DNA from: a virus
Length of the DNA stretch: 64,000 bases
Direction: 5' to 3' (one strand)
IMG/VR virus record: IMGVR_UViG_3300021256_000098
Shown here: positions 8,371-60,171 of the stretch, piece by piece
Layout of the letters: each line of letters begins with the position of its first letter
Position numbering within the stretch: position 1 is the first letter of the stretch
Made by a program: the position numbers and the translations under genes
Notes under the pieces: model-generated
Seen by the model: the letters and a program-made list of their open reading frames with translations, nothing else
Database searches by the model: none
Told to the model about the DNA's origin: nothing

Positions 8371-8532
8371 ATGTGGTTTGTCTTTCTTGTATCTATGATT
8401 GCTATTAGTTTGGTAAGTTCACTTTTGGTTTTATTTATCAACGCGGTAGCCAATAAGATTCACAAAGATAATATCCGAGCAGAAAAAGAACTAGAAGAAT
8501 ATCGTACAAAGGAGCACTACAAAGATGAGTAA
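8371..8532 (+). CDS. 53-aa single-pass membrane micro-protein, not in the ORF track (under 60 aa); possible NfeD-like partner of the SPFH protein
   Basis: ATG at 8371 preceded by agggag. Hydrophobic N-terminal helix. Overlaps the start of the SPFH gene by 8 nt. Confidence 0.45.
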   Translation: MWFVFLVSMIAISLVSSLLVLFINAVANKIHKDNIRAEKELEEYRTKEHYKDE

Positions 8533-9593: not shown

Positions 9594-9788
9594 ATGCCGG
9601 AGTGCCTGTACCGCGCTGCTTGCGGGAAGGAGGGATTTGATGACTGCCCTTGTGATTTTTATTTTCCGATGTCCGACTATTCGAGGCTCTCCTGTCCGGA
9701 TCGGCAGCAATTAACTTCGTATCGCATTTCTTTAGAACAAAGACAGAAAGCGTACCGTGAAATTATAAAAGACTTTAAGGATGATTAA
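9594..9788 (+). CDS. small Cys-rich hypothetical protein (64 aa)
   Basis: ORF with a gggaggagg RBS. Confidence 0.4.
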   Translation: MPECLYRAACGKEGFDDCPCDFYFPMSDYSRLSCPDRQQLTSYRISLEQRQKAYREIIKDFKDD

Positions 9789-9910
9789 ACATTTTTGCAC
9801 CACCTCTGTATAAAGTAAGAAAATTCCCTTTATCACTTTTAATAGAATGTGATTTCAAATTAAGTGATAATAAAGAATTAGACAAGTATTTAGTTAATCA
9901 GCAAGACAAT

Positions 9911-12367
9911 ATGCTGTTTCGTCAAATTAGAATGATTACCGGTGATTGCGGCAAACGCAACGATTATATTATCTTTGTTAATTGTAAAGGTGGCAAAGCT
10001 CACCGTGACGCATTATCTGATTTAGTACGAGAAGGATTTTGGATTGGTGATACACATTACGTAACCAGCGAACGGTCAGCATCTATGGTACGCACCTCTA
10101 TACTTTCTTTTGTAGATGAAAGTATTAGTGAAGAATTACGCCGTCGTGTCACGATGGATATACATTTAGAAACAACGGTTCTTTCTAAGTGGTATGCGTA
10201 TCGCGGATTGATGTTAAGCTCGTGTCATTGTTTAGAGGGTTGGACGCCGCGTATTATTATCGTACCAGACTTATATCGTGTTATTGCAAATCAGACGATT
10301 AAGTATGTTTATGATAAACACATGACCTATGAAAAGGACGGTAAAGTATTACCGTGGGTGCAAAAAGATATTGCGACCGGTGTACGAGACATCGAGATCA
10401 ATGCTGCGGATGGGTGTGGAATACATCATCCTGATATTACCGATCAAGTTCGTGGCATGTTGGACGCTAAGTCCGACCCTACTTCAATCTTGTGGCGTGC
10501 GCCTTTTATCAAAGGCGTAACCCACGAGATGGATTACATTTCATTTTTTCAAGAACGCGGGGTAACTGAAATAGTAGATATTTGGGGAGTACGTCACGAC
10601 GTCTCCCCTTCTTCCCTACCTGCTATTATTATGTGTGAATCAATGTATAAAGGTTTCAAATATTTCAAACGCAATGGAGATGTGTCAGATTGGGAACATT
10701 ATTGGGAAGTGTTTCATAAATACAATCATTGCATCGGAGTTGCGAAATGGAATTTTTCTTTAGATGAAGAACCTTTGTATACTCGCGGCAACTATCAGAT
10801 ATTGCAAGACTTAGATTTACCTTATGAGGATTTTGCTACGCTGGCGCGATATTCGATAAGTTGGGTGTCACGCATTCTTACCGGCGATCCCGTTTATCTG
10901 TATAGTTTTCTCGGATTATTTGCCGACCAACATAAGAGCTTTGATTTGCGCATGGAAGCGTTAGTTAAGAATCGTATGATGATTCATGAAGCTGGTGTAC
11001 GTCAGTACATTATATCATTGATTTCTAAAACGATTGATGATATGAAGTGTGGTAAATTATATTTGAAAGCCTGTTTTAAATTTGAAGCTCCTGACCTTAT
11101 TATGTTAATGGAACATATCGGCGGTTTGCCTTTGCATGGTTGTTTAGAATCAGATGAGTTTTTCTCGTTTAACAAACAAGGTAAGTTCAACGGTTATTAT
11201 TTGGTGGAACGCAACCCCCATATTTGTCGATCTGAGCATTGCAAATTAAAAGCGGTTAATAATGAATTAACTGACAAGTATTGTTCCCACCTGGTGAATG
11301 TAGCTATGTTAAATAGTAAATCAATTACTGCCCAGCGATTAAACGGTAGTGACTTTGACGGCGATTTAGTATTAGTAATTGATGAACCCATGATGATGGC
11401 AGGCGTAGACCCCGACGTTCCAATTACGATTGATGTTGAAGATAAAGTTACTGCTTTAGAAGAAGCTGACACGCCTGAGAATCAGGTGAAAGTTGCATTA
11501 CGTGGCATGAATTCGTTAATCGGTGAGACAAGTAATTGTGCTACGGCATACATCAATAAAACGCCGAAGACCATTGAAGCTAAATTGCGCTATGACTCTT
11601 ATATAAACTTACTGAGTGTTATCAATGGTAAAGCAATTGATTCGGCTAAGACCGGTGTAGTGTATAATATTCCTAGATATATTGCTAAGTATGGGCGACC
11701 TCTCCCCTACTTCATGAAATATGCTTCACCATATTATGCCAGCATGAAAGACTTATCTAAGTCACTTAGTAACATGAATCGTCTTTGCATGGAAATTGAA
11801 TCGTGGCAGCGGTCTATCCGGTGGAATAAACCGTTTTCTAAATTTTCTGCTACGGGAACAATGCAAAACTTTGAGTATCATATTGACACAGAGGATAATA
11901 TGAATCAGCCCGCAGAGTCACAGCATTTTGATTATAAAATCATGATCGACGATACAATCCCCGTCGATAAAAATAAACTCGAACAGATTCGGGCTATCTT
12001 TCTACAGTACAATCAAGAAAGTAGTGCTTTAACAAAAGAGTTTCGCGCAGGGTTATTAAAGGCTACAAATAAAAAGAGCCGATCTGAAAGCTATGTAATA
12101 GATATTGATTGGCAGACATTTTATAATTCGTACCGATTAAGATGTTTTGATATTTGTCCTAACATCTGTGAGCTTGCTAACTATGCTGTTATTATTTGTT
12201 ATGAGTATTATCCAAAAAGGTCAAAAGGTTTTTTGTGGCATATAGCTGGCGAAGGCATTATTGCTAATCTTAAACAAGTAGAAGAATATTTACCTATCAG
12301 AGATGATGCCGGTGACTACGAATATTTAGGTCGGCGGTATCGAATGGAGAAGATCATGTTTGATTAA
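9911..12367 (+). CDS. 818-aa protein with an NGSDFDGDLVLVI motif; candidate YonO-like single-subunit (two-barrel) RNA polymerase, or another Mg-dependent nucleotidyl transferase
   Basis: Long ORF. The DbDGD-type motif resembles the catalytic Asp triad of RNAP beta-prime (NADFDGD) and of YonO/cellular RdRP-like enzymes. Its size matches YonO (~840 aa), and it sits just upstream of the late packaging/structural genes. Confidence 0.45.
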   Translation: MLFRQIRMITGDCGKRNDYIIFVNCKGGKAHRDALSDLVREGFWIGDTHYVTSERSASMVRTSILSFVDESISEELRRRVTMDIHLETTVLSKWYAYRGLMLSSCHCLEGWTPRIIIVPDLYRVIANQTIKYVYDKHMTYEKDGKVLPWVQKDIATGVRDIEINAADGCGIHHPDITDQVRGMLDAKSDPTSILWRAPFIKGVTHEMDYISFFQERGVTEIVDIWGVRHDVSPSSLPAIIMCESMYKGFKYFKRNGDVSDWEHYWEVFHKYNHCIGVAKWNFSLDEEPLYTRGNYQILQDLDLPYEDFATLARYSISWVSRILTGDPVYLYSFLGLFADQHKSFDLRMEALVKNRMMIHEAGVRQYIISLISKTIDDMKCGKLYLKACFKFEAPDLIMLMEHIGGLPLHGCLESDEFFSFNKQGKFNGYYLVERNPHICRSEHCKLKAVNNELTDKYCSHLVNVAMLNSKSITAQRLNGSDFDGDLVLVIDEPMMMAGVDPDVPITIDVEDKVTALEEADTPENQVKVALRGMNSLIGETSNCATAYINKTPKTIEAKLRYDSYINLLSVINGKAIDSAKTGVVYNIPRYIAKYGRPLPYFMKYASPYYASMKDLSKSLSNMNRLCMEIESWQRSIRWNKPFSKFSATGTMQNFEYHIDTEDNMNQPAESQHFDYKIMIDDTIPVDKNKLEQIRAIFLQYNQESSALTKEFRAGLLKATNKKSRSESYVIDIDWQTFYNSYRLRCFDICPNICELANYAVIICYEYYPKRSKGFLWHIAGEGIIANLKQVEEYLPIRDDAGDYEYLGRRYRMEKIMFD

Positions 12368-13004
12368 CGAAATATTATTAGTTCAGAATTTATTAGATGG
12401 AATCGGTATCAATAAGGCATGTTTGTTTCAACATTGTTATTTATTGGCGAAGTATTATTTGCAGTTAGGATACGAACCGGTAGATGTTCGTCGGAATATT
12501 TTTGCGTGGGCAAATAAATATAATTTATATTTAAGCAGCACAAAAATCAATATCAACCGCATCATTTTCAAAGCGCAAGAAGATAAACGTCGTTTACGTG
12601 AGGACGTAGTTGTTCGTGTTTCGCAGAAAGATTTAGATAATATTGCAGAACGGTTTGATAATCCGAAAACGCGCCGCATTGCTCTGGCCATGTTGTGCTA
12701 TGCAAAGGTTGCAGCAGATAGCGCAAATGAGTTTGAACTATCTATCATATCATTCTGTAACTGGCTCGGAGTTGATTTCTCACGGATGCACAGGGCATAT
12801 CTAAAAGAATTGCAAACCTTTGGATATGTTGAGCGGATATCAAAGACTCATGCCAAGAAGATTTATTCGTGGGATCGCAACGTCAAAAGTAAAGCTGCGA
12901 ATTTTAAGTTGTTAGTGAAGTTTAATAATTCTGGCACGCATGTATTAAGAAATAACGATATTGATGCTTTGTTTCATGAATGTTTCGATGAGCGCACTGA
13001 CTGA
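12360..13004 (+). CDS. hypothetical protein (214 aa), translationally coupled to the 818-aa gene
   Basis: ATGA overlap with the upstream stop. Confidence 0.5.
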   Translation: MINEILLVQNLLDGIGINKACLFQHCYLLAKYYLQLGYEPVDVRRNIFAWANKYNLYLSSTKININRIIFKAQEDKRRLREDVVVRVSQKDLDNIAERFDNPKTRRIALAMLCYAKVAADSANEFELSIISFCNWLGVDFSRMHRAYLKELQTFGYVERISKTHAKKIYSWDRNVKSKAANFKLLVKFNNSGTHVLRNNDIDALFHECFDERTD

Positions 13005-13020
13005 CGAAAACTTTATATTG

Positions 13021-13060
13021 AACCACCCCTCTGTTGTTTTTGAGGGGTGGTTTTGTTTTG
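13021..13060 (+). terminator. intrinsic terminator: ccacccctc / gaggggtgg stem followed by a T-run
   Basis: Perfect 9-bp stem with loop tgttgttttt, then ttttgtttt. Confidence 0.7.
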
Positions 13061-13199
13061 AAAAAGTCTGTGTATATGAATACATAATATGTGTGGTAAA
13101 TATAAATTGTTAAAATAAATGGCTCTGGCTGAGTCAAATTTAATTTTTGCTCGTGGTCTTTGGATTACGATCAAAGAAGTAAAGGAATGAAAGAACGTA

Positions 13200-13606: not shown

Positions 13607-13945
13607 GTGCTAGTGGTTAAAAAGGAATTAGTAGCAGAGATTGCTGACCGTATGAATATCGACAAAGAAACCGCAGGTTTATTCTTTCAAACATTTCAGG
13701 ATGTAGTCTATGACACGCTTAATTCTGGCGAGGATATTTTAATTGTTAATATGATGCGTATGGAGATTGTGCTACGCGATGGACGTAGCTATTATGATTT
13801 ATCTGCAAAGGCAAACGCATGGGCACCGCCTAGATATAATTTAGTAATTCGTCCTATTGGCAAATTAAAGGACTCTATTAAGAGCCAGAAGGTTTCTACT
13901 TATGAAGCAAAGAAATTGCGTAAGCACTCTCGGAGCGAAGACTAA
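13607..13945 (+). CDS. HU/IHF-family DNA-binding protein
   Basis: KKELVAEIADR...F...V..L..G..I profile of bacterial histone-like proteins. GTG start, ending on the integrase start codon. Confidence 0.55.
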   Translation: MLVVKKELVAEIADRMNIDKETAGLFFQTFQDVVYDTLNSGEDILIVNMMRMEIVLRDGRSYYDLSAKANAWAPPRYNLVIRPIGKLKDSIKSQKVSTYEAKKLRKHSRSED

Positions 13946-14949: not shown

Positions 14950-16086
14950 ATGGATTTACTTGATTTACGAGCAGATCAACGTGCTGCGGCAGCTAAGAAC
15001 GAGAAACTTGGCGAGATGTATGTATTCGCGTCGCGCCATGTTAAATGTACACGGTGCGGTCTGGTGCCGCGCAAAGCTGATACTGTTTTCTTCAAAAAGA
15101 ATGATTCTCCTGTTTACTCAGCAAACAATGGACGTATTTGTATTTGTAAATCGTGTGCACAGAAAATATTTGAAGCATACGCAAAGGAAACAAATGATCC
15201 TTTGTACGCATTGATGCAATTTTGTGCTGAGTTTAATTACTATTATGATAAAGAAGTCGCCATTGCACTGTATGATAATGGCACATTATCATTAGGTAGA
15301 TACATAGCGAAGATCAATACAGTAGACAGAGGTAAAACATTTGCTGACAATTTTGCATCTGTTGTATCTACTCAACGAGAAGAACCTGCGGTTTTAGAGC
15401 AACCAACCTATAATCGTACAACGTCTTGGGCAATTGAAGACAAGAAAAACAAAGACAATGTTTCAGAACGTATCGGCTACGACCCGTTTATTGACGGGGG
15501 ATTTTCTGATGAACAGTTAAAATTTCTGTATAATACCTGCGCGGGGTATTTAACAGATGCGGTTGAACAAGACCCGCATAAATTGCAAAACGTCGTTTTG
15601 ATGTGTAAAACATTTTTACAGTTGGAAACAATTGATAAGATGTTAAATAATCAATTTAACTCAGTTAATCCAGACACACAACTCATTGCGTCACTCACTG
15701 CCACTAAAGAGAAATTGACTAATACTATTACTAGAATAGCGAACGAAAATGGTTTTGCTGAAAAAACTAGCGGTCGTTCCAACCAAGGTTCAAACACACT
15801 GTCGTTCAAAATGCGTGAAATGGAACAAAAACATTTTGAGTTTTCTAAGGTAAATATACATGATGTTCGTATGGCTGAATCATTTAAGGAAATCGCCAAA
15901 ATTAACGCACACGCTTTAATGGATGAACTTGCAGAAACCGGCGATGATTTTGCTCGTCTCTGCGCGGATCAGCGACAGTTTGTTGTGGAATTGCAAGAAG
16001 AGAACGATGAATTAACTGAGCAGAATAGATTGCTTAATATTCGTATCAAAGACTTAGAAGAACAAATAAAGGCGAAGGCTCGGTGA
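14950..16086 (+). CDS. zinc-ribbon protein with a C-terminal coiled-coil; possible terminase small subunit by position
   Basis: CTRCG...CICKSC pairs. Lies immediately upstream of terminase large. Confidence 0.4.
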   Translation: MDLLDLRADQRAAAAKNEKLGEMYVFASRHVKCTRCGLVPRKADTVFFKKNDSPVYSANNGRICICKSCAQKIFEAYAKETNDPLYALMQFCAEFNYYYDKEVAIALYDNGTLSLGRYIAKINTVDRGKTFADNFASVVSTQREEPAVLEQPTYNRTTSWAIEDKKNKDNVSERIGYDPFIDGGFSDEQLKFLYNTCAGYLTDAVEQDPHKLQNVVLMCKTFLQLETIDKMLNNQFNSVNPDTQLIASLTATKEKLTNTITRIANENGFAEKTSGRSNQGSNTLSFKMREMEQKHFEFSKVNIHDVRMAESFKEIAKINAHALMDELAETGDDFARLCADQRQFVVELQEENDELTEQNRLLNIRIKDLEEQIKAKAR

Positions 16087-16091
16087 TATAG

Positions 16092-18080
16092 GTGGCAGTT
16101 AGTACACAGCTCTCCCCCGCTATTGCCGATGATGAAATTTTCCAGTTTGACACAGTGCGTTTTGATTTAGCGTCTATTCGTTTAGACCAGATCGAGATTA
16201 CTGACCCTGACTTGTTACAGTTAGCGTACAAATACTATAAAGCACTCAGCGCAAAAAAGATTAAAGAGTATTTGCGTTTCTGCAAATTTGTGCAATGGGG
16301 ACGTTTGAATCCAGTTGATTTTGCTTCGGCTGTATTTGGCATTGAGATGTTAGATTTGCAGAAATATGCTTTAATCAACTCTTGGCCGCGACAGTTTGTA
16401 TTATGGCTTGAATGTCGAAACGCTGGCAAGACTACCTTGATCGCAATTTATGTTATGTTACGGTCGTTATTGATTCCCTATCATGTTACATACTTGTTAG
16501 GCAAAATCGGCGGTCAGTCAAAGCAAATATTCAAAAAAATTGAAGAAATTGCTACACAACGTATTGAGACATTCCTAGGTGTTACTGATGTGTTCTACAA
16601 TGAGTTGCGCAAAGATGGTGCAAACTCAACAGGATTTAAGCACGATCCGAACTCGTTTGAATTGAATTTGTTTAATAACGCTGCTGTATATACATTGAAC
16701 TCTGACCCAACAAATATTAAAGGTAAGCGTGCATCATTAGTCGTATTTGACGAAGCAGGTTGGTTCTCTGACGAATTGTTTACACAAGCAGAAGCATTTG
16801 TAAATCAGAATGAAGAATTCAAATTAGGTGGAGATGTCGATTTAAGCATTGAGCCTACAGGATTCCCTAGACAGTTATTATATGCGTCTTCGGCTTCTGA
16901 TACAAACTCTGGTTTTTATCGTAAGTTTAAGAATATATCAGAACGTATGTTACTTGGCGATACTCGGTACTTCTCTGTCAACTTTACAGCAGATGCTTTG
17001 TTGAATGCAAAGGTTGATGGTAAACCTTATACTTCTCTGGTATCTAAAGATCAGATTGATAAAATGATGACCGAAAAGCGCGAGGCTGCATTACGAGAAT
17101 ACTATAATCATTTTTCTGCTGACTCTTTTGAAGGGCAAATTATTTCTCGTCGAGATTTGATGCAGTGTACAGAAAACTATACTCCTATTATGTCCAACGA
17201 TACCGGCAATCGAATCATTTGTATGTCGTGGGACTCTGCGAGACTGAACGATAATTCGGTTATTGTAATCGCAGAATTTTATAAAAAGAAAGAACGCGAC
17301 AAAGATTCTGGCCGTACACGCGATATGGGATGGCACATGCGCATTCTCAATGTTGTCTCATTAGTTGACGTTAAAACCAAACAGCGCACGCCAATGCGTT
17401 TCCCTGAGCAAGTAGAAAGATTCAAACAATTATTGTTGGATTATAACGGCACGCAACACGGCAAAAAAGACTATGAAAACATTAAACGTATTATTTGTGA
17501 TGCCGGTGCCGGTGGTCAGATCATTGGTTCTGTAGCTGATTATATGTTAGCTCACTGGACAGATTCATTTGGTAATGAACACAAAGGCATTATTGATGTT
17601 TCTCATAAGGCGAATGAAAGTGCTAGAGCCACTTATCCTGATGCAGTTGATATTATGACGCTTGTCGATCCTAGAGCGCACAGAAATGAAATTTTTGATG
17701 CGATTGAAAAAATGGTGAAACTTGGAGTGGTATCATTCCCTGCCGATCCAGAAGGCAGAGACTTTATTACCCATATTGATGATGAAGGCAATGACATTGT
17801 TACTCAACTGACGCCGGAACAGATGGTAGCTTGTTCTCAAATCGAGTTAATGAAAACAGAAATTGTTACTATGTGCAAGTATGTAACGCAAGGTAATATT
17901 CGTTATGATTTTCCGGCCGACAAAAGAAATCGTATGCACGATGACCGCGTATTTGCGTTTGGATTGTTGTGTTGGTATTTAGCGAAACTGCGGCGCGGTG
18001 ATGTGGTAACACGTAGACCAGAAGATGAACCAGAAGTGTTTGTACTTCCGTTCCGTAAACCAGTATTAAGAAAACTCTAA
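16092..18080 (+). CDS. terL: terminase large subunit
   Basis: Walker A (RNAGKTTL), Walker B (LVVFDEAGW), Asp-rich C-terminal nuclease region, 662 aa, followed by a portal-sized gene. Confidence 0.8.
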   Translation: MAVSTQLSPAIADDEIFQFDTVRFDLASIRLDQIEITDPDLLQLAYKYYKALSAKKIKEYLRFCKFVQWGRLNPVDFASAVFGIEMLDLQKYALINSWPRQFVLWLECRNAGKTTLIAIYVMLRSLLIPYHVTYLLGKIGGQSKQIFKKIEEIATQRIETFLGVTDVFYNELRKDGANSTGFKHDPNSFELNLFNNAAVYTLNSDPTNIKGKRASLVVFDEAGWFSDELFTQAEAFVNQNEEFKLGGDVDLSIEPTGFPRQLLYASSASDTNSGFYRKFKNISERMLLGDTRYFSVNFTADALLNAKVDGKPYTSLVSKDQIDKMMTEKREAALREYYNHFSADSFEGQIISRRDLMQCTENYTPIMSNDTGNRIICMSWDSARLNDNSVIVIAEFYKKKERDKDSGRTRDMGWHMRILNVVSLVDVKTKQRTPMRFPEQVERFKQLLLDYNGTQHGKKDYENIKRIICDAGAGGQIIGSVADYMLAHWTDSFGNEHKGIIDVSHKANESARATYPDAVDIMTLVDPRAHRNEIFDAIEKMVKLGVVSFPADPEGRDFITHIDDEGNDIVTQLTPEQMVACSQIELMKTEIVTMCKYVTQGNIRYDFPADKRNRMHDDRVFAFGLLCWYLAKLRRGDVVTRRPEDEPEVFVLPFRKPVLRKL

Positions 18081-18093
18081 AGGAGGTGTATGT

Positions 18094-19548
18094 GTGAGTA
18101 GCAATCAAGTTGTAGATGAACAGTTTTTAAGATACGCGAAACTTGCGAAACAATATTTAAGACCTCCGGGCAGTATTACTTCTGATACTCAGACCACATT
18201 TGGTTCTTTTACAAAAAAAGATATTCTGGATTTGTTAGAGCGTCCAGCAAATTCTGAAAGGCAACTGCGAAAAGCATCTATCATGCTTTACAATATTTCC
18301 AGTCATTATCGTCGTTTGATTTCTTATTTTGCTAAAATGCCGACGTTTGACTTCTATCTAACACCACTTGGGGTTGATCCCCAGGCGAAAATTAACGAGA
18401 AGAGTTTTAAGAGTTGTTTCAAAAAGGCCGTTGACCAAGTAGAGCGGATGAATTTGAAACATGAATTACAAAAAGTATCAACTACGATTTGGCGTGAGGA
18501 TGTATTTTATGGATATGAGTATGAGCAGAAAGACTCGTACTTCATCCAAAAATTAAATGCTGATTATTGTAGACTGTCTGCAATTGAAGACGGCGTGTTT
18601 ACTTTTGAATTTGATTTTAGCTTTTTCAATTCTCGGTTGCATTTGCTGCCGTACTATGCTCCTGAATTTCAGCGCAAATATGAATTGTATAAATCAGATC
18701 GAAAAGGCAAACGCTGGCAAGAGCTTGATACAAAAAAAGAAGTATGTTTCAAGCTAAATGAAGATTTAGAATATATTTTCCCTCCCTTTGCAGGGACGTT
18801 CCCTGACATTTACGACATCGCTGATTATAAGCAGCTCATGAAGGCTCGCACTGAGATTGATAACTATAAATTGGTCTATTTGAAAATACCTTTTGAAAAT
18901 GGCAGATTTAAGTTACCAGAAAGACTTGCGAATAATTACTATGAGCAAATGGGACAGCAGATGCCACCCGGTGTTGGTCTTGGCATGACCCCCATGGATA
19001 TCGACCAAGTAAGTTTTGAGCAATCTGGTAATACTCGTGACACAGATACGGTTGCGCGAAGTGAAGCTGCATTTTGGAGCGGTAGCGGTGCATCGTCTGC
19101 TATTCTCGGTAAAGATGATATTACATCGTCTTCTGCAATTATGCTGTCAATCGAAACAGATGCAGAAATTGTATATTCATTACTGCGGCAGATTGAACGA
19201 TGGGTTAATCGTAAATTAAAACAATTATCGGGAACGTATCATTTTAAGCTCACATTCTTAAATTCGACTGTATTTAATAAGCAAAACGCACAGGAACAAT
19301 ACCTCAAGGCTTGTCAATATAGTTTCCCGTTGAAATATGCGGCTGCCGCAGCATACGGCATTACGCCGTCTGATTTTAGCGGTTTATTAGTATTAGAAAA
19401 TGAGACAATGAAATTGCACGAGGAAATGATACCTGTATCATCTTCTCATACGCAAAGCAGTGATAGTTCGCCGGGGCGTCCTGCCCAGGACACAGTAGAT
19501 GAGTCGGGTGAAAAGAATAGGGCGAATGATAGCAATGATAAACGGTAA
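18094..19548 (+). CDS. portal protein (by size and position)
   Basis: 484 aa immediately downstream of terL. Confidence 0.55.
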   Translation: MSSNQVVDEQFLRYAKLAKQYLRPPGSITSDTQTTFGSFTKKDILDLLERPANSERQLRKASIMLYNISSHYRRLISYFAKMPTFDFYLTPLGVDPQAKINEKSFKSCFKKAVDQVERMNLKHELQKVSTTIWREDVFYGYEYEQKDSYFIQKLNADYCRLSAIEDGVFTFEFDFSFFNSRLHLLPYYAPEFQRKYELYKSDRKGKRWQELDTKKEVCFKLNEDLEYIFPPFAGTFPDIYDIADYKQLMKARTEIDNYKLVYLKIPFENGRFKLPERLANNYYEQMGQQMPPGVGLGMTPMDIDQVSFEQSGNTRDTDTVARSEAAFWSGSGASSAILGKDDITSSSAIMLSIETDAEIVYSLLRQIERWVNRKLKQLSGTYHFKLTFLNSTVFNKQNAQEQYLKACQYSFPLKYAAAAAYGITPSDFSGLLVLENETMKLHEEMIPVSSSHTQSSDSSPGRPAQDTVDESGEKNRANDSNDKR

Positions 19549-19796
19549 CGCATTATTTTTATATACCTGCAACCCCTCAACCGCCGAACGGTTGCGAGAG
19601 TTAAATTTTGATCTATTAAATGTTAGAGGCGGTCAATATATATTCGTTTGTTCTCCTGATATGTATAGTTGTTATTCAAGTAATGAGTTAAGTGATATAT
19701 TATCAGAATTATATGTGACAAATAAATTGATACTCTAACTGCCTGATGGCAGTTTTATTATTTGATAGGAGGTGAGATATCATAGAAAAGATTCGT

Positions 19797-21326
19797 TTGA
19801 AGTCTTCACTTTCTAATTCGGTTTCTAATTTAACTGATATCAATGACTCTTTCGCTCTTGGAACATTGAATGTAGCTTACACCGGTGAAAATCGAAATCA
19901 GACTGCAATCTCCAAAGAGGCATTTGAAAAAAGTGCTTGGTCAGCCTTAAACTGTCCGATTGTTGCTAATTATGACTTCGAGACAAAAGAAATCGGTGGT
20001 CATGACACAATTTTATCATTGTCACCTAATGGAGCAAGTGTTATCAACCTCACCCAACCTGTCGGTGTTGTGCCTGAATCGGCGAAATTTTATTGGAAAT
20101 CAATTGAGGACAATGGCGTTGTGCATGACTATTTATGTATTGATAATGTTATATTATGGAAACGTCAACCATGTTATCAGAAACTTGTCGAGAATGGCAC
20201 AACCGCTCAGTCTATAGAAATTAGTGTTACTAATGGACAGTTAGATGATGGCATATTACATATCAACGAATTTCAGTTTGAAGCATTTTGTTTGTTAGAA
20301 CGCGATGAGCCGTGTTTTGAACAGGCTTCTTTGCAGTTATTTAGTAAGCAAGAATTTGCTGAACAGTGGCAACAGATGTTACAAGAATATGCACAAACCA
20401 CATTACCGGATTCCGAGAATGGAGGGAAATCAGTGGATTTAGAAAATACCGTAATTCAGGAAGTAGAAGATATAGCGGAGGAGACAGTAGTTGCCCCCGC
20501 AGATGATGGTGCACAAAATGATGTGGACGTAGCTGAACAGTCTGCGGACGAAGAGGTTGTAGCAACTTCTGAGGAAACATCTGAGGTGGAAACGACAGAA
20601 AATAAAACGTCTGATGGTGAACTGCCTGTCGATGACGAAACTGTTGAAAGCGAAGGAGCAGAAGTACTGGAGTCGTTTGCTTTAACTGCGGAACAAATTC
20701 GCTGCCAATTATTGCGAGAACTTGATGTTATGGGCAATCATTTTAGCTTGTATGATTACGATAATGAAAATGTCTATTTTTATGATTGTGAAGATGGACT
20801 GTTGTATGGATGTGCGTACCAGATCGTAGATGGACACGCGGTTATTAACTTAGAGACTAAAACTCGTAAGCAACTTGCTATTGTTGATGTAGAACAATCT
20901 GAGAGTCATTCTGTTTTGTCTGACTTAATCAATCATATGGTGGACGAGCAGGTTGGTAATTGCTCTGCTGCGTATGCAGATAAGATAGCTCAATTAGAAA
21001 CTCAGATTGGCGAATTAAATGCTACCATTAAAGAACTGACTGAGTTTAAGACACAGAAGTTGGCAGACGAGCGTGCATCTGCGGAGACGGCATTGTTTGA
21101 TCGTTTTGATGAACAACTGCAACGGTGTGATGCGTATACCGAATTAAAGCAACATGCAGCTGAGTATTCGCTCTCTGAATTAGAGACTCAGTGTTATGTA
21201 TTAGTAGCAAAGAAAGCTATGATGTTTTCAAAGGCACCTGTGTCTCGTAGAATACCCGTCGAGGGTGTTACAAATACGTCGGTAGATGCTTATGGTGGTT
21301 TACTGAACGATAAAAAACAAATTTAA
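19797..21326 (+). CDS. scaffold and/or prohead protease-like head protein with a highly acidic middle region and a coiled-coil C-terminus
   Basis: Position between portal and capsid; acidic low-complexity segment. Confidence 0.4.
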   Translation: MKSSLSNSVSNLTDINDSFALGTLNVAYTGENRNQTAISKEAFEKSAWSALNCPIVANYDFETKEIGGHDTILSLSPNGASVINLTQPVGVVPESAKFYWKSIEDNGVVHDYLCIDNVILWKRQPCYQKLVENGTTAQSIEISVTNGQLDDGILHINEFQFEAFCLLERDEPCFEQASLQLFSKQEFAEQWQQMLQEYAQTTLPDSENGGKSVDLENTVIQEVEDIAEETVVAPADDGAQNDVDVAEQSADEEVVATSEETSEVETTENKTSDGELPVDDETVESEGAEVLESFALTAEQIRCQLLRELDVMGNHFSLYDYDNENVYFYDCEDGLLYGCAYQIVDGHAVINLETKTRKQLAIVDVEQSESHSVLSDLINHMVDEQVGNCSAAYADKIAQLETQIGELNATIKELTEFKTQKLADERASAETALFDRFDEQLQRCDAYTELKQHAAEYSLSELETQCYVLVAKKAMMFSKAPVSRRIPVEGVTNTSVDAYGGLLNDKKQI

Positions 21327-21341
21327 GATGGAGGTAATATA

Positions 21342-21857
21342 ATGGCTAATTGTGTAGTTCGTACCGATCTTATGAGCGGTATTACAGATGCTTCTTGCCT
21401 TGAGCATGGTCGTTTCTATGGCTCTGACGGTAAGTTCGCAGAGATTCAAAATGGTTCGATTGTACAGGTAGGTGCTTTAGAGGAAAATGAGCGTGAGTCT
21501 CATAAATACACCGACGTTGCCGATGGTGCGACTTTAACGGATGTAGTGCTTATTGCTGAACCGGAGATGGGTAAGACTTATAGAAATCATGTTGATCTGA
21601 CTGAGTATATCAACGAGGCAGGCAAGTGTATCCGTGGTTATCGTCTGCACGCTTTTGATGAGTTTTCTGTAACCGCAGATGGTTTTAAGGACGCAACAGC
21701 AGCAAAGGTTGGTGCCTTTGTGTCGGTTGCTAAGAATGAGCACATTCTGACTGTTGGTGCTTCTAAGCCGTCCTCTGGTCTGTACATTGGTAAGATTGAG
21801 CATGTAGAGACTCGCGGAACTCTGACGTTCTATAACATCGCTGTTTACGCAAAGTAA
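21342..21857 (+). CDS. head decoration/scaffold-like protein (171 aa) with highly-expressed codon usage
   Basis: Strong RBS ggaggt. Codon bias (cgt/ggt/ctg) shared with the capsid gene. Confidence 0.4.
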   Translation: MANCVVRTDLMSGITDASCLEHGRFYGSDGKFAEIQNGSIVQVGALEENERESHKYTDVADGATLTDVVLIAEPEMGKTYRNHVDLTEYINEAGKCIRGYRLHAFDEFSVTADGFKDATAAKVGAFVSVAKNEHILTVGASKPSSGLYIGKIEHVETRGTLTFYNIAVYAK

Positions 21858-21881
21858 TTATAAGAGGAGGTTTTAATAATA

Positions 21882-22898
21882 ATGGCTAATACTAACGAGA
21901 TCGTAAGACTGGCTCTTGATAGCCGTCATGGTCGTGGTGATGCGACACATTATTCTGCGCATGACGTGCAAGACTCCCTGCGTTCTGCTCTGATTGACCT
22001 GAATGGTGGTTCTACGAAGTTGAATGCAAAGGCTATCCGCAATGGCAATGCTAATGAGATGTTTTCTGTTGCCGAAGAGGTTATCCAGCATGAGTTAAAT
22101 GATTATTGGACGAACAACGAGATTGTTAATCGTGTTGTTGAGCATCGCAATGCAGCTCTTGGCGATGACCTTGAGTTCTATGTACCGGACAATTCTCTGT
22201 TCGCAGTTGCTACTATTTCTGAGGGTAACACTGGTATTCGTCGCCAGCGTTTTACGAATGGCCAGTACGTTAATGTTCCGGTTGAACTGCGCGGTATTAA
22301 GATTTATGAGGATATGATTCGCGTACTGTCTGGCCGTGTTGATTTTAATGATATGATTGACAGAGCTATTGCATCTATGGCAAAGGACGGTTACGACCGC
22401 GCTATGAGTGCATGGGCTAAGATTTCTGCTACCGAGCTTGGCGACACTTATGTTCCGACCGTAACTGGCACATACGACGAGGACACTCTTCTGCGCCTGG
22501 TTGATGACGTCGAGGCTGAAACCGGTAAGAAGGCTGTTATTTACGGCACGAAGCGTGCTCTGCGCACCATTGCTCCGTCCGTTGAGATGGCAGCATCGTC
22601 TGCGAAGGAAGACCTGTATCAGATGGGTTACTTTGGTAAGTTCTATGGCACCGATTGTGTTGCTATGCAGCAGGCGCACAAGACCAATTCGACCGAAATG
22701 GTTCTTGATGACAAGACCTTGTTTGTTATGGCAGCAGATGACAAGCCGATCAAGCACGTTACTTATGGTGAAGGACTCATCCTGCAAAAGGATGCTATCG
22801 AGAATGCTGATCTTACCTACGAGTGGCTTTACACTGAACGCGATGGTTTTGGTGTTGTTGTCAGCGACGTATTTGGTAAGTACACGTTTGCGAACTAA
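21882..22898 (+). CDS. major capsid protein (candidate)
   Basis: 338 aa, RBS gaggaggt, pronounced high-expression codon bias, head-module position. Confidence 0.55.
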   Translation: MANTNEIVRLALDSRHGRGDATHYSAHDVQDSLRSALIDLNGGSTKLNAKAIRNGNANEMFSVAEEVIQHELNDYWTNNEIVNRVVEHRNAALGDDLEFYVPDNSLFAVATISEGNTGIRRQRFTNGQYVNVPVELRGIKIYEDMIRVLSGRVDFNDMIDRAIASMAKDGYDRAMSAWAKISATELGDTYVPTVTGTYDEDTLLRLVDDVEAETGKKAVIYGTKRALRTIAPSVEMAASSAKEDLYQMGYFGKFYGTDCVAMQQAHKTNSTEMVLDDKTLFVMAADDKPIKHVTYGEGLILQKDAIENADLTYEWLYTERDGFGVVVSDVFGKYTFAN

Positions 22899-51022: not shown

Positions 51023-51057
51023 TAGTGTAATCTTATTTGTATTTTTTATTCATCGTA

Positions 51058-51080
51058 CTTCTGTGACATTATCACAGAAG
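51058..51080. promoter_or_regulatory. 23-bp palindromic motif, copy 1 (cttctgtgacattatcacagaag), in the leader of gene 51101
   Basis: 9-bp inverted arms with a 5-bp spacer. One of 6 copies in the window. Confidence 0.6.
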
Positions 51081-51100: not shown

Positions 51101-51628
51101 ATGATTGAAAGAAAATCAATAATTGCCTCTACCCTTGGCGTTCAAAATCATGGTGGCAGTGGTGGAGATGTAGATTTAAGTGAATACAGGAAATATGTAG
51201 ATCAAGATGTGATTGATGCGGCACTGACTGCGAAGGTGACGGCATTAGAAGATAAAGCCGAACGCTTTGTTGTACATTGTACTGCCTCTTCTATCCCGCC
51301 TTTTGGAGGAGCATTTGATATTGCTACTGATAAATCGTTCAATGATATATTATCTGCATACAACAGTAATAGAGAGGTATGCGCTATTTTGACGTCATCC
51401 GCAATGCAAGGTGTTGCATTCCTTACAGGCATTGCTCCGGATGCTGCTATATTTTACACTCTCATTACTTTAGGTTCGCAAAGCAATCTTATGTACTTAC
51501 TCGTTTGTATTAGTAACGATAAACCGTTTGGCGTATTGATGTCTGCAACATATGATGATACTGATATTTCTAATCGCGTTTCCGCACTGGAAACCGCGCT
51601 GACAGGACTAGACGAGGTGATCGGATGA
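51101..51628 (+). CDS. hypothetical (175 aa)
   Basis: ORF preceded by the palindromic motif. Confidence 0.45.
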   Translation: MIERKSIIASTLGVQNHGGSGGDVDLSEYRKYVDQDVIDAALTAKVTALEDKAERFVVHCTASSIPPFGGAFDIATDKSFNDILSAYNSNREVCAILTSSAMQGVAFLTGIAPDAAIFYTLITLGSQSNLMYLLVCISNDKPFGVLMSATYDDTDISNRVSALETALTGLDEVIG

Positions 51629-53136
51629 GTACATATGTTGAGCGTATTCAAGCGCAGATTGATAAAGCGAATACTGCAACGGGAAAAGATGATTCCACGC
51701 TGGTACAAGCCGTTCAATCGCTCGTCGACGGCTACGGTGCAGGCGGCGGCGATTCCGGGGCGGAAGATATGCTGAAAGGCTTGATCGAACGCTCTGCAAC
51801 GGAAATCACGATCCCAAACGGTGTGACGAGCATCGGGGATTATGGGTTTGCATATTATTCCGGCCTGACCAGCATCACGATCCCGAACAGCGTGACAAGC
51901 ATCGGGAGTAATGCGTTTTTTAACTGTGCAAAATTAGCTAGTATTACGATCCCGGGCAGTGTGAAAACCATCGGAACCTTCGCATTTCAAAGGTGTTCAC
52001 AACTTGCCAGCGTCACAATCCTGAACGGCGTGACGAGCATCAAGGATTATGCGTTTTACAACTGTGCAGAATTAGCTAGCATCACAATTCCGAACAGCGT
52101 GACAAGCATCGGGAGTAATGCGTTCAAGGGTATCAACGCGAACGCCGTAATCACTTGCAAATTCGCAGAAGGCGCGGTGTCAGGTGCGCCGTGGGGTGCG
52201 CCAGACACGGTTCAAATTATTTACGAACGACGTGTATATACTGTATATTTTTATAACGGTTCTACGCTGTTACAGACGGTTGAAGGAGTACAAGCAGGAG
52301 GAACGGCGACTTATACCGGGGAGACCCCGACAAGGACTGGCGTGGAGAACCCTGAGGACTATTCGTTCAGCGGATGGTCGCCGTCTAACACCAACATCCA
52401 GAGCAACACATCCTGCTATGCACAGTTCAATTATACTGGCGTGCCGGAGACCATTACGGATAGTTGGGACGACATCATCGCGGCGGTCAACAACGGGACC
52501 TATGCCAGCAAGTACAGCGTCGGAGACACCAAGCAAATCGACCTCGGCACGGAGGGTATCGTGGCTATGCAGATTGCGGCCATCGACACCGACGCGCTCG
52601 CCAGCGGCAGCGGAACGGCGGCCATCACATGGATTTCGCAGCAGCTTATCGCTACGAGCCATCGCATGAACCCGGCCAGAGCCGCAGACCCGGAGGATTC
52701 CTCCAAGTATCAGGAGGGTACGGGAACCATCGGCGGCTGGGAAAAGACGGAGATGCGGAGCTGGCTGAAAGAAACGGTCAAGCCGCTTATCCCGGCGAAC
52801 GTATTGGCAGCCATCAAGCCCGTAACGAAGTACAGCAGGATTTACGACACTTCCGGCAGCGCGGTGAACAACGTCACCAGCACGGAGGATGTATGGATTC
52901 CGTCGGCCAGAGAGGTCGGCTTCACCGGGTACGAGACAGAGGGACCGACCTACACCGGGCTGTTTACGGCCAATGCAGACCGTATCAAGAGCAAGACAGG
53001 CGCGTCCAGCGCCTTGTGGTGGCGGCTGCGGTCCGCTTCCGGAAGCGATACCTTCGGTAATGTGCATTCGGCCGGCTCCTATATCAGTTACAGCGCGTAC
53101 TACTCTGGCGCGGTGGTTCTCGGCTTCTGCATATAA
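51625..53136 (+). CDS. BspA-type leucine-rich-repeat protein with a Listeria-Bacteroides-type repeat and a GC-rich C-terminal domain (WWRLRS-containing)
   Basis: At least 4 LRR_5-like repeats (ITIPNSVTSIGSNAF...), YTVYFYNGS...GETPTR repeat. GC rises to ~60% in the last ~900 bp. Confidence 0.65.
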   Translation: MSTYVERIQAQIDKANTATGKDDSTLVQAVQSLVDGYGAGGGDSGAEDMLKGLIERSATEITIPNGVTSIGDYGFAYYSGLTSITIPNSVTSIGSNAFFNCAKLASITIPGSVKTIGTFAFQRCSQLASVTILNGVTSIKDYAFYNCAELASITIPNSVTSIGSNAFKGINANAVITCKFAEGAVSGAPWGAPDTVQIIYERRVYTVYFYNGSTLLQTVEGVQAGGTATYTGETPTRTGVENPEDYSFSGWSPSNTNIQSNTSCYAQFNYTGVPETITDSWDDIIAAVNNGTYASKYSVGDTKQIDLGTEGIVAMQIAAIDTDALASGSGTAAITWISQQLIATSHRMNPARAADPEDSSKYQEGTGTIGGWEKTEMRSWLKETVKPLIPANVLAAIKPVTKYSRIYDTSGSAVNNVTSTEDVWIPSAREVGFTGYETEGPTYTGLFTANADRIKSKTGASSALWWRLRSASGSDTFGNVHSAGSYISYSAYYSGAVVLGFCI

Positions 53137-55141: not shown

Positions 55142-56695
55142 TTATAAGATATACTTTAGGTTTGTTAGGCACCATTCTAAAGTCATGTGACTTACAAATG
55201 GATCAAAATTATTGTTGCTATGTTTAATATCAGAATTTATAATAGTGGTAGCATACGCATACGCATTAAATGTTAATGTGTCTTTATCGTTCATATACAG
55301 ATACGATTTCCAAAGCGCATTTAGAATAACTCGAATGTCAACATCATTGCGATAACATTCCAATATTTTTCTGTAGAATGAATAATCAATCCCGTTAAAT
55401 TTACAAGTATTTTCTGCAAAGTTCCGTATTGAAATAATATAAGTTTCTAATTCACTAACTTCCGACGTAGTTGACACAAATGGTTCATTGGATAAAACAA
55501 GTCTTTTATAATTGGCTCTTGCGGCGTCATCGCTACCAAACGACTTATATTCGATCTCACTTACCCTATCGTAATCAAATAGCTGTTGGTTAGCGTCGGT
55601 AAGAGGTAATGTTCCCGTCGCATATATATCCATCATCTTTCTTGCGTATGCCTCAACTGACTTTTCGATCATTCCAGCTTGATCTTTTTGCGCTGTATCT
55701 TCTATGGCCTGTCTAACCATACCTACTCGCACAAATTGGTCGTAGCACTCTCCGATCTTCTTCGTCAGTTTCTTACCAACCGTTCGATGCACTGTGTCTG
55801 CATAATATTGTGTCAACTCGTAAATATATTTATCTCGTGTTTTTGTAGATGTTACAATCTGTTCATTGTCGTTTTTGTTTTGACTTTCTTTCATTCTAAC
55901 AAACAATTCAAATGAATACATCCCGTTACGCTTAATAGGTGTACACTGAATAGCAAGCTCTGTCTGTGCGCTTACAGTATTTGCAGACTCTTTAATCAGT
56001 CTAACAAAGTCTCGGTCTTGTTTATATTTGTTACCTTGCCCTATGAATGTTCGTAATTCTTCTAGTGTACAAACAAACGGTTTACCTTCTTTATTGTTCT
56101 GTTGGATCAAACTAAAATACGAAATGCAATACTCATACAGTCTTATTGTTACAGGATTTGGCAGACTTAGAATGTTTTCGATCTCATAGGTTGTGTAATA
56201 ATCTTTTAATTGCACAATGTATGGAATTAAATCAGGGTTCAACTTCAATATCAAACCACCTGTTTGTGGCGTAAATTCCGAAGTAGTAACCCAATTGATT
56301 CGTTTAATTACATCTCTACCATATTCGTCCTGCTCTGTTAATTCTGTTTGGATTCGTGTCATTTCACGAATTACATCGGGCAGTTTATAGTAGATTCGTT
56401 TTGACATACCGATGTATTTTGCAAAATCTAAAACATTGCAGTGGTAAGTCAGACACGCATCATTTACATCGTTGACTGAAGAAATAATTTGTCTGATTAG
56501 TTTGATCTGTAATGTTGTCATTGGTTTCGGGGGAGGAGAGTTTTTTGTTCCATCGTCTGGCATAATCATCCCCGGAGCGCGGATCAATTTATTTTTAATG
56601 GTAACGCGACCATTTTTATCAAGCAATAATTTCTTATCCATATTCCCATCCTCCTTGCAGTGATTATATATCAAGTGTTTAACTTTGTCAATCAA
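55142..56695 (-). CDS. rep: Rep_3-family plasmid replication initiator (RepA/RepB, WH1-WH2)
   Basis: W...F....L.PY...LK.Y.T.Y....LSL....T.RLYEY... profile. Iteron array immediately upstream. Confidence 0.75.
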   Translation of the reverse strand: MIDKVKHLIYNHCKEDGNMDKKLLLDKNGRVTIKNKLIRAPGMIMPDDGTKNSPPPKPMTTLQIKLIRQIISSVNDVNDACLTYHCNVLDFAKYIGMSKRIYYKLPDVIREMTRIQTELTEQDEYGRDVIKRINWVTTSEFTPQTGGLILKLNPDLIPYIVQLKDYYTTYEIENILSLPNPVTIRLYEYCISYFSLIQQNNKEGKPFVCTLEELRTFIGQGNKYKQDRDFVRLIKESANTVSAQTELAIQCTPIKRNGMYSFELFVRMKESQNKNDNEQIVTSTKTRDKYIYELTQYYADTVHRTVGKKLTKKIGECYDQFVRVGMVRQAIEDTAQKDQAGMIEKSVEAYARKMMDIYATGTLPLTDANQQLFDYDRVSEIEYKSFGSDDAARANYKRLVLSNEPFVSTTSEVSELETYIISIRNFAENTCKFNGIDYSFYRKILECYRNDVDIRVILNALWKSYLYMNDKDTLTFNAYAYATTIINSDIKHSNNNFDPFVSHMTLEWCLTNLKYIL

Positions 56696-57413: not shown

Positions 57414-57560
57414 ATGAAGACTATTACAGTTCGCATTGATGATGAGTTGCATGAACAACTCGTCGCATGTGCAGCCAAAGAACATCGTTCCATTAGTAAT
57501 CTGATTAAAACTATCATCTTAGATTACATGGATAGGGAGGGGCAGAAGAATGAAGGCTAA
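57414..57560 (+). CDS. ribbon-helix-helix (CopG/Arc-like) protein, 48 aa, not in the ORF track; likely par operon regulator
   Basis: ITVRIDDELHEQLVACAAKEHRSISNLIKTII is a classic RHH. Overlaps the parA start. Confidence 0.55.
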   Translation: MKTITVRIDDELHEQLVACAAKEHRSISNLIKTIILDYMDREGQKNEG

Positions 57561-58311
57561 GATCATTGCTTTTGCAAACCAAAAAGGAGGAGTTGCCAAG
57601 ACAACATCTTCCGTGATGACCGCAGGGAAGTTGTCAGACATGGGATATAAAACCTTATTGGTTGACGCTGATCCGCAGGGAAGTGCTACAAGATACGTTT
57701 ATAAAGATTTTGATGAAACAACTAATGACTTGTATGATGTATTGACAAGTGCATGTGAGGTATCACAGGGAATCATTCATGATACAGACTTTGGCGATCT
57801 GATTGCAGCATCAAACAAGTTGTACGACCCTGCGCCCGTAGATAATGACCCTTACATCATCCAGAGAGTATTAGATAGCGTCAGCGATCAATACGATTAT
57901 ATAATTATTGATACGCCGCCAAACCTGGGTATGATGTTGATTGCTGTATTGTTAGCAGCGGATAGTGTTGTTATTCCCACAAAAGCAACGAAAGAATCAG
58001 TGCAAGGCGTTGACGATTTATTCAGCACGATTCAGGAATACACCGAGTACAATTCACGACTAAAGGTAGCCGGATTTTTAATAGTAATGTCGAACGCGCG
58101 TGTTCGCGCAGTTAAAAAGATCACTGAGGAATTACAGGCTTATGCTGATAGTATCGGATGCAAAGTATTTGAACATCGTATCCGTACAGCGGAAGGATTG
58201 TTTGGCGAAGCAGAGATATTCAGCGACAACATTTTCCAGAAATTTGCGCGGCATTCAGCCACAAAAGATTATTGTGGCTTTGTTAATGAATTATTGGAGG
58301 AGATGTCATGA
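57550..58311 (+). CDS. parA: ParA/Soj-family partition ATPase
   Basis: Deviant Walker A KGGVAKTT. 253 aa. Confidence 0.8.
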   Translation: MKAKIIAFANQKGGVAKTTSSVMTAGKLSDMGYKTLLVDADPQGSATRYVYKDFDETTNDLYDVLTSACEVSQGIIHDTDFGDLIAASNKLYDPAPVDNDPYIIQRVLDSVSDQYDYIIIDTPPNLGMMLIAVLLAADSVVIPTKATKESVQGVDDLFSTIQEYTEYNSRLKVAGFLIVMSNARVRAVKKITEELQAYADSIGCKVFEHRIRTAEGLFGEAEIFSDNIFQKFARHSATKDYCGFVNELLEEMS

Positions 58312-59913: not shown

Positions 59914-60171
59914 ATGGAACGAGAAACAATCATCAATTTTGAAGAAAGCCAAGAGTGGGCTATAATTTACACTCATAACCGCTTACTTTTAAGAACACTG
60001 CAAAAGTTATTAAAAGAATATCCAGAGGATGTATTTTACATTAACAAACACGCAGACGGAGCGCAGACATTCCAAATTCATAAAGAGTGGATTGATATTC
60101 GTCCAGCATCTATATCGCCATTCCAACGGAAAAGAGTAAACGTAAAGGTGAGGAGGAATTTACATGAGTGA
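59914..60171 (+). CDS. hypothetical (85 aa)
   Basis: ORF, ATGA-coupled to the next gene. Confidence 0.4.
   Translation: MERETIINFEESQEWAIIYTHNRLLLRTLQKLLKEYPEDVFYINKHADGAQTFQIHKEWIDIRPASISPFQRKRVNVKVRRNLHE

Follow-up and report, generated by a model that had tools for sequence, protein, structure and literature searches.

The DNA analysed here (the window) is a stretch of 64,000 nucleotides from the IMG/VR virus record IMGVR_UViG_3300021256_000098. Our subject is a gene on its plus strand which, as called mechanically, occupies positions 9911..12367 and encodes 818 amino acids, including NGSDFDGDLVLVI. The gene overlaps another one for a 214-residue protein, and the pair is followed by a terminator, an AT-rich motif, an HU-like gene and a long run of late genes. 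An original prediction, made from the letters alone, had singled out this open reading frame (ORF) and its DFDGD motif, both of which are present as described, and had proposed that the product is an RNA polymerase resembling YonO of phage SPbeta. Judged by sequence and by a structural model, the ORF is a true homolog of YonO, a single-chain RNA polymerase with two barrels.

Family, active site and fold of the polymerase

The DFDGD motif (residues 481-485 of the called ORF) is, when taken by itself, only suggestive. The six-frame translation of the window contains a single D-x-D-G-D, where composition would predict 0.12. This makes it mildly unusual, and its significance comes from its context.

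The protein matches Pfam PF05183 (RdRP, RNA-dependent RNA polymerase) with 63.2 bits against a gathering cut-off of 23.8 (E=2.7e-17), and the alignment joins residues 32-613 to positions 55-573 of the 582 in the profile. This family holds QDE-1, the plant RDRs and YonO, and its precomputed assignment is found on nearly all listed relatives of the polymerase. PHROG 8308, whose function is unassigned, matches at 3.7e-73.

In a tblastn search of 50,697 phage records, the polymerase matched 40, including the Thomasclavelia phages TR-TP1/TP2, Enterocloster phages, the Clostridium botulinum phages c-st and D-1873 and ORF099 of Bacillus phage 0305phi8-36. The match in SPbeta and its relatives is yonO itself (E=2e-17). 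A direct BLASTP comparison with YonO gave E=1e-23 and 23% identity over 576 aligned positions, and the motifs of the two proteins pair along the alignment (window/YonO): DGCGI/DGCGM, WRAPFIKG/VRLPWVKG, ERNPHI/LRSPHL, DFDGD/DNDGD, IGETSN/IGEYSN and IDSAKT/IDFAKT.

Ruprich-Robert and Thuriaux described eight residues that are invariant across two-barrel RNA polymerases; in QDE-1 these are D709, R738, K743, R962, P964, D1007, D1009 and D1011, with R962 and P964 equivalent to R446 and P448 of Rpb1 (PMC2919709). All eight are present in the window polymerase, as D167, R196, K201, R434, P436, D481, D483 and D485. The residues of the first, beta-like barrel lie within 10409..10516: D167 at 10409-10411, and R196 and K201 in R196-A-P-F-I-K201-G202 at 10496-10516. 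The second, beta-prime-like barrel contributes R434-N-P436-H437 (11210..11221), aligned with LRSPHL of YonO, and the metal-binding aspartate triad D481-F-D483-G-D485 (11351..11365), aligned with its DNDGD. If the prediction was right, a further barrel with conserved basic residues was to be expected beside the one that bears DFDGD, and R196 and K201, along with the acidic D167, are present and conserved.

The spacing of these residues follows QDE-1 closely. The first-barrel arrangement D-29-R-5-K and the R-x-P element are the same, and the distance from R to D is 47 as opposed to 45 in QDE-1. In an alignment of 60 family members (22-46% identity), which takes in YonO, BUCT082, PMBT24 and TR-TP1, the conservation of R196 is at least 90% and the other seven residues do not vary at all.

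Sequence searches of the PDB with the polymerase, and with a profile of the partner described below, gave nothing useful, so that fold searches were needed. An AlphaFold2 model built with 59 homologs reached a mean predicted local distance difference test score (pLDDT) of 89.5 and a predicted template modelling (TM) score of 0.87. Over residues 471-490, which carry the aspartate triad, the pLDDT of 10-residue blocks is about 91-95.

Compared with the PDB by Foldseek, the model found maize and Arabidopsis RDR2 and QDE-1 as its best 21 hits (E=1e-18 to 1e-14, probability 1.0, about 800 columns). The single-chain RNA polymerases of Thermus phages (P32 gp64, P74 gp62) came next at about 1e-6, and marginal beta-prime/Rpb1 hits came last (E=0.02-0.1, TM below 0.1). 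This search returned no unrelated fold, and no YonO-type structure was among its matches. The confident model matches QDE-1/RDR2 and other two-barrel RNA polymerases only, in line with the PF05183 match; neither the fold of an archaeo-eukaryotic primase (AEP) nor that of a structural protein appeared, and DFDGD lies in a high-confidence, invariant region. The order of strands and helices near residues 106-242 and 383-490 of the model fits two double-psi beta-barrels.

Beyond the barrels, we looked for features of the beta-prime and beta subunits of multisubunit RNA polymerases (clamp, bridge helix, trigger loop and flap/SBHM insert) and found no Pfam RNA_pol_Rpb1 or RNA_pol_Rpb2 hits and only the marginal Foldseek hits mentioned above. 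A zinc ribbon (CxxC...CxxC) was found neither in the window polymerase nor in its partner.

The family is large, with 1347 representatives at E<=0.001 among 50%-identity clusters. The named carriers of this clade belong to the gut Clostridia/Bacillota and include Lachnoclostridium, Faecalibacillus, Diplocloster, Anaerolentibacter and Oscillospiraceae. The polymerase protein of the window recurs in identical form across many independent assemblies (19 contigs), and metagenomic relatives that are 50-73% identical to it share the order polymerase, partner, HU, terminase.

Named members of the same clade include the Thomasclavelia phages TR-TP1/TP2 (TR-TP1 with 40.6% identity over the full length) and Enterocloster phage PMBT24, as well as NCBI proteins of Anaerolentibacter, Gehongia and Diplocloster. 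They have the same gene order and are annotated as RNA-dependent RNA polymerases. The 'RNA-dependent' in these database names was taken over from the Pfam family and probably misstates what the enzymes do.

In some relatives (L083, L084, L085, L091, L094, L101, L117, L118 and L119) the polymerase gene is interrupted by insertions of 0.3-1.1 kb, which sit exactly at DFDGD (query residues 482-484) and at GKAIDSAKTG (around residue 577). The larger ones encode ORFs like GIY-YIG homing endonucleases (GIYCIEN...KYIGQT). The insertions are probably mobile introns, but a search of these interrupted genes with Rfam identified no intron. Since mobile elements tend to settle where essential genes are most constrained, we count endonuclease-bearing insertions at these two sites in favour of the YonO-class reading.

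In many related phages the reading frame of the polymerase contains one or two TAG codons (for instance L038 at 6037 and L065 at 6847). The loci in question are L037-L050, L058-L060, L065, L066, L073, L076, L078, L081, L086, L090 and L097. In most of them the tblastn alignment of the partner also holds one in-frame stop. TAA is the codon at the true stops that we checked, which suggests that this lineage recodes TAG.

The two-gene operon and its signals

The N-termini of the relatives are about 40 residues longer than that of the called ORF and begin with M/L-FAPPLYKVRKFPL at ATG or TTG. The homologous codon in the window is an ATT at 9791, 40 codons 5' of the called ATG, from which IFAPPLYKVRKFPL is encoded in frame. 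The frame is open from there to the called ATG (product IFAPPLYKVRKFPLSLLI), and an in-frame TGA (9782-9784) lies just before it. As read from the sequence, the putative start region (9777..9793, plus strand) consists of an AAGGA Shine-Dalgarno element (9777-9781) 9 nt upstream of the ATT, the TAA of a preceding 64-residue ORF (9786-9788), which sits 2 nt before it, and the ATT itself (9791-9793). It is kept as ATT in all four of the other assemblies checked.

Comparison of the window with the related locus L007 over the 50 codons from 9791, of which 40 precede the called ATG, gave 17 identical codons, 22 synonymous and 11 non-synonymous differences. Because synonymous differences outnumber non-synonymous ones and the frame is conserved, the N-terminal extension is, on this comparison, under purifying selection. 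We infer that the polymerase gene probably starts at the ATT, a weak non-canonical start, and that its probable full extent is 9791..12367 on the plus strand, or 858 residues. The ATG at 9911 that the original prediction took as the start is probably 120 nt too far downstream. Translation from the ATT might possibly involve termination-reinitiation from the preceding ORF. The latter (9594..9788) has the size of SPbeta YonP but no homology to it.

The second gene of the pair (12360..13004, plus strand) encodes the conserved 214-residue partner. It has a TTG start and overlaps the polymerase stop by 8 nt (ATGTTTGATTAACGAA), which makes the proposed translational coupling of the two genes plausible. 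Neither Pfam nor PHROG gave a family assignment for the partner of the window itself. It is 32% identical to gp4 of TR-TP1 (E=2e-31), and a homolog lies directly 3' of the polymerase gene in L007-L010.

To survey this association we used 81 loci, namely 80 IMG/VR loci with a polymerase relative and the window. The partner is present in 80 of them, and the sole locus without it is a truncated contig. In 43 loci, all of one BLAST cluster, it abuts or overlaps the polymerase stop; in 37 it lies 0.2-1.5 kb downstream. In hhalign, a profile of 20 diverse partners also matches the ORF behind the polymerase in the Spbetavirus BUCT082, a Bacillus phage (96.8%, E=2e-10), and that in Enterocloster phage PMBT24 (92.9%), as well as CST177 of c-st (96%). 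The annotation of CST177 (L124 6223-7053) makes it the C-terminal portion of a split YonO homolog; it is actually a partner homolog that ends in a YonO-like zinc ribbon.

We found no separate partner gene in SPbeta. Residues 777-820 of YonO, which include its zinc ribbon, resemble the zinc ribbons at the C-termini of the partners in BUCT082 (E=4e-05) and c-st (E=9e-04), and the BUCT082 polymerase aligns with YonO up to about residue 796. The C-terminal 239 residues of YonO as a whole are not a partner (hhalign 7.6%), as only the zinc ribbon matches the BUCT082 and c-st proteins. These comparisons tentatively suggest that YonO of SPbeta keeps only a fused remnant of the partner.

The AlphaFold model of the partner (pLDDT 87.6) consists of an N-terminal helical domain, a winged helix-turn-helix and a small beta C-terminus. 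Foldseek found only ArsR, HlyU and MarR domains for it, with weak E-values, and the Pfam family HTH_36 was hit in 6 of 14 members. There were also weak hits to Rep3_N, HTH_36, plasmid initiator and DnaD structures, while a search for sigma-70 regions 2 and 4 found no sigma-like domain. From its co-occurrence with the polymerase and its predicted fold we infer that the partner may be a DNA-binding subunit or factor of the polymerase and a candidate promoter-specificity factor. A Rep-like role is the main alternative.

The operon of polymerase and partner is closed by an intrinsic terminator at 13020..13060 (plus strand), with a 12-bp GC-rich stem, a 10-nt loop and a T-run. Its minimum free energy is -22.5 kcal/mol (z=-5.5), and none of 200 shuffled sequences folded equally well. 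SPbeta has an annotated stem-loop right after yonO. A scan for sigma-70 promoters around the polymerase gene gave no more hits than shuffled sequences did; the same scan missed the terminator on account of its 10-nt loop.

The AT-rich motif GTGTATATGAATACATAATATGTGTGG (13070..13096, plus strand), a candidate late promoter or regulatory site, lies 20 nt past the terminator. It is single-copy in the window. An identical 18-mer occupies the equivalent position in L007, a locus with a 67% identical polymerase, and strings like ATATGRAATAC-TAATAAT-RTG follow the partner stop in many diverged loci.

We scored this element with a leave-one-group-out position weight matrix over 30 lineages, from which two circular cases were excluded. 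In the remaining 28, the highest-scoring site no more than 185 nt from the partner stop ranked in the locus-wide top 3 for 5 lineages (about 0.5 expected) and in the top 10 for 8 (about 1.8 expected). By this measure the element is real but confined to about a third of the lineages. As a late promoter it is a hypothesis only.

The 10-nt core ATATGAATAC is not above chance as a repeated site in the window, and the exact 17-mer had 11 hits in IMG/VR, only one of which (from the same phage) lies next to a polymerase; the rest we attribute to chance. The 18-mer was not found in the SPbeta locus with up to 3 mismatches.

The YonO start site has been published at genome position 2225998, between yonN and yonK (PMC5467207). 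The published primer sequence for it was not found in our genome collection. In the SPbeta locus, the interval L001 8964-9157, which published primers bracket, contains TCATTTATGAGGGTG, similar to the ATATATGAAAGGGTG variant of many TAG-interrupted relatives. The non-coding yonN-yonK spacer (1.7 kb) also holds a match to the Rfam DUF3800-VIII small RNA motif (L001 10039-10104; 47.5 bits against a cut-off of 40.2).

In six of the 30 lineages (L023, L025, L030, L062, L082 and L008), the partner stop is followed after 10-125 nt by a lineage-specific tandem array. These arrays have 3-6 copies and a period of, for the most part, 13-14 nt; L062 has 5.7 copies of AATGTTTACACGA. Compared with the rest of the loci, P is about 3e-4. 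Such arrays could be binding sites of the partner or iterons. No tandem array follows the partner gene in the window.

The element and its late genes

By its gene content the window is a phage-plasmid. It carries a Rep3-type initiator, ParA, ParB and a tyrosine recombinase, as well as a full siphovirus-like late block with terminase, portal, tape measure and fibres (PHROG hits to terminase, portal and tail). The plasmid maintenance module (55142-59336) comprises the Rep3_N initiator (55142..56695, minus strand), ParA (57550..58311) and ParB (58308..59336), and about nine 21-bp iterons, TCGNGTTACAATYTCTCGCGAA, lie beside rep at 56929-57118. The C. botulinum phages c-st and D-1873, known as phage-plasmids, likewise carry YonO homologs.

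Past the operon and the AT-rich motif comes a gene for a 112-residue HU/IHF-like DNA-binding protein (13607..13945, plus strand; PF00216, E=4.5e-12), which is a homolog of yonN (BLASTP to YonN, E=2e-09). The start of the putative regulon (14950..22898, plus strand) encodes, by Pfam and PHROG, a 378-residue protein of the YonG_N family, the large terminase subunit, the portal and proteins of the YonD_N and YonB families. The polymerase gene therefore lies just upstream of the terminase, portal and structural block, where the original prediction had placed it, and the plus-strand late block runs on to about 50 kb.

The YonG_N, YonD_N and YonB assignments of the genes after the polymerase are precomputed on identical contigs; these families are named after late proteins of SPbeta. 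In chromosomal relatives, the genes after the polymerase carry YomW, YomV and YomU. The order polymerase, HU-like gene, late genes is common to the window, SPbeta, TR-TP1, PMBT24 and BUCT082.

A palindrome recurring in late-gene leaders had also been proposed as part of the regulatory circuit of the polymerase. The sequence in question, a 25-bp near-perfect palindrome (ACTTCTGYGAYATTRTCACAGAAGT), has six copies where none are expected by chance: 51057-51081, 54009-54033, 55030-55054, 55074-55098, 55118-55142 and 59456-59480. Two of them lie just upstream of the ORFs at 51101 and 54057, one follows parB, and three stand in tandem, spaced at 44 bp, in the interval that separates the rep gene from the convergent 54057 gene.

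All copies thus fall at 51-59.5 kb, beyond the structural genes. Because none is near the polymerase gene or the head of the main late block, their position gives no support for a role as a polymerase promoter or as part of its circuit. The palindrome looks like a group of operators or hairpins that belongs to the lysis, replication and partition genes rather than to the main late block.

Several other features were observed in the window. The early region contains a gene for a SocA/Panacea-domain antitoxin-like protein (4942-5385) and one for an SPFH/Band-7 membrane protein (8525-9397); a Band-7 gene is also found upstream of the polymerase in L007. At 1-132 and 1395-1543 there are GC-rich 44-bp tandem repeats, three copies each of two different units, in an otherwise AT-rich and mostly non-coding stretch 5' of the early genes, and the window begins within one of them. 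In-frame repeats occur inside two ORFs: about 19 register-shifted copies of a 15-nt unit at 60412-60846 (ORF 60164..61141), and four copies of a 69-nt unit at 51800-52112 (ORF 51625..53136), the latter coinciding with a local GC peak of 51%. Rfam revealed no RNA family in the window.

Probable role of the polymerase and proposed role of its partner

Forrest et al. showed in 2017 that YonO of SPbeta is a processive and strictly DNA-dependent RNA polymerase with an essential aspartate triad (the 3D>3N mutant is inactive). The enzyme is required for 37 late genes, which form a single transcribed operon; the study did not define its promoter or any cofactors (PMC5467207). The window gene resembles yonO in most respects. 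Both encode a single chain (about 840 residues in YonO) with both double-psi beta-barrels and with catalytic motifs that all match, and both stand ahead of an HU-like gene and long co-directional, homologous late genes (YonG, YonD and YonB families).

There are also differences between the two systems. YonO has a C-terminal zinc ribbon (CCICG...CQSCG), a feature of the type member that the window polymerase lacks, while the window has the separate, translationally coupled winged-helix partner that SPbeta is without. Unlike SPbeta, the element has plasmid Rep/ParAB functions, and its host is a gut Clostridia-type bacterium.

Sequence and model establish that the polymerase belongs to the family, has its fold and keeps an intact active site, and that the gene is syntenic with late genes of the SPbeta type. 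The DNA-dependent activity and the late-gene specificity of the window polymerase would be shared with YonO by analogy. That the window enzyme does the job of YonO for the block at about 13-50 kb is the most economical reading of the homology and the shared gene order. We therefore consider it very probable that the gene encodes a YonO-class RNA polymerase that transcribes the late block of its own phage.

The proposed mechanism is as follows. The active site would form at the interface of the two barrels, from D167, R196 and K201 of the first and R434, P436 and D481/D483/D485 of the second. Expression of the polymerase may be throttled by the ATT start 2 nt past the stop of the preceding small ORF, and the enzyme would be co-translated with the winged-helix protein, its putative DNA-recognition or initiation partner. 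Beyond the terminator that ends the two-gene operon, transcription of the late genes would begin, possibly from the 13070-13096 motif. From there the polymerase would transcribe the long co-directional late block, which comprises packaging, head, tail and probably lysis genes.

Several observations weigh against this reading, or against parts of it. The identity to YonO is only 23%, and the C-terminal 230 or so residues do not align with it. The nearest solved structures are RNA-dependent enzymes, and a preference for DNA or RNA templates is not readable from sequence. The candidate promoter motif is supported in only about a third of the lineages and is AT-rich, and the YonO start site in SPbeta is bracketed rather than pinned. 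The winged helix of the partner also resembles plasmid Rep and DnaD domains, and the role we assign to it draws on co-occurrence and fold.

Some of these points would fit an enzyme of the same fold with another job, one that acts mainly on RNA or single-stranded templates or that makes primers or transcripts which activate replication. We regard this as improbable. The best structural matches are indeed RNA-dependent RNA polymerases, and QDE-1 is reported to have both RNA- and DNA-dependent activity (PMC9508822). The weak similarity of the partner to replication initiators and the iteron-like 13-14-nt arrays just after the partner gene in some relatives point in the same direction. However, YonO strongly prefers DNA and is required for late-gene transcription (PMC5467207), and the window polymerase is placed as in SPbeta relative to the same late genes. 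Moreover, a distinct Rep3-type initiator, accompanied by iterons, is already encoded in the window, and no array follows the partner there.

QDE-1 and RDR2 (PDB 2J7N, 7W82 and 7ROZ) have the same eight active-site residues and are the best structural matches, with a TM of about 0.5 and 13-15% identity. They copy RNA or single-stranded DNA for silencing in eukaryotes and carry extra N-terminal domains, and there is no sign of such a role here.

Even less likely is a homolog that has decayed or lost catalysis, for instance a remnant with a structural or regulatory function, in which the called ATG is real and the ancestral start was lost. The replacement of the ancestral ATG/TTG by ATT would be expected of such a gene, and the in-frame TAG codons or insertions in the gene of some relatives might be seen in the same light. 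Against this, the catalytic residues are all intact and the 818-residue ORF is fully open. The 40 upstream codons are also open in frame, with more synonymous than non-synonymous differences in the region tested, and the identical protein is found in 19 contigs.

We give practically no weight to the alternatives that the original prediction itself had named, an AEP primase-polymerase or another Mg-dependent nucleotidyl transferase with a DxDGD-like motif by coincidence: the motif is short and its count not decisive alone, but no AEP, primase or nucleotidyl-transferase family appeared in the Pfam, PHROG, PDB sequence or fold searches, the significant hits are all two-barrel RNA polymerases, and seven further family-specific residues stand at the right spacing.

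Other phages also encode two-barrel RNA polymerases, namely the gp62/gp64 class of the Thermus phages P23-45/P74-26 and the non-virion enzymes of AR9 and phiKZ, which have a specificity subunit. All are of the rifampicin-independent type and serve middle or late genes. Their structural match to the window polymerase is much weaker (E=1e-6 for the Thermus-phage enzymes, >0.1 for AR9), their domain organisation differs, and they have no sequence homology with the partner. For the AR9 enzyme, promoter recognition depends on a dedicated subunit, and we propose the same role for the partner.

Returning to the YonO-class reading, one may go further and suppose that these polymerases are normally two-component enzymes, in which the partner recognises the promoter and directs the polymerase to it. 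The site would lie just past the terminator of their own operon, at 13070-13096 in the window, with the 13-nt repeat arrays behind it in some lineages. SPbeta would then be atypical, having lost its partner save for the zinc-ribbon remnant. This extension is conceivable and, on balance, somewhat doubtful.

To our knowledge, YonO of SPbeta is the only YonO-type enzyme, bacterial or phage, that has been studied, and we know of no smaller relatives of the cellular RNA polymerases than the YonO-type enzymes, which are discussed as models of their ancestor. The present analysis indicates that such enzymes are common among the phages and phage-plasmids of human-gut Clostridia, of which the window supplies a well-defined and intact case. 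It also puts right the misleading name 'RNA-dependent RNA polymerase' under which databases list these phage genes. The polymerase itself confirms a known enzyme type; the partner is the interesting lead. Strictly co-inherited with the polymerase and without a counterpart gene in the model phage SPbeta, this winged-helix protein is a candidate answer to the problem of promoter targeting. If the two-component proposal is true, the question of how YonO finds its promoter, open since 2017, would become directly testable.

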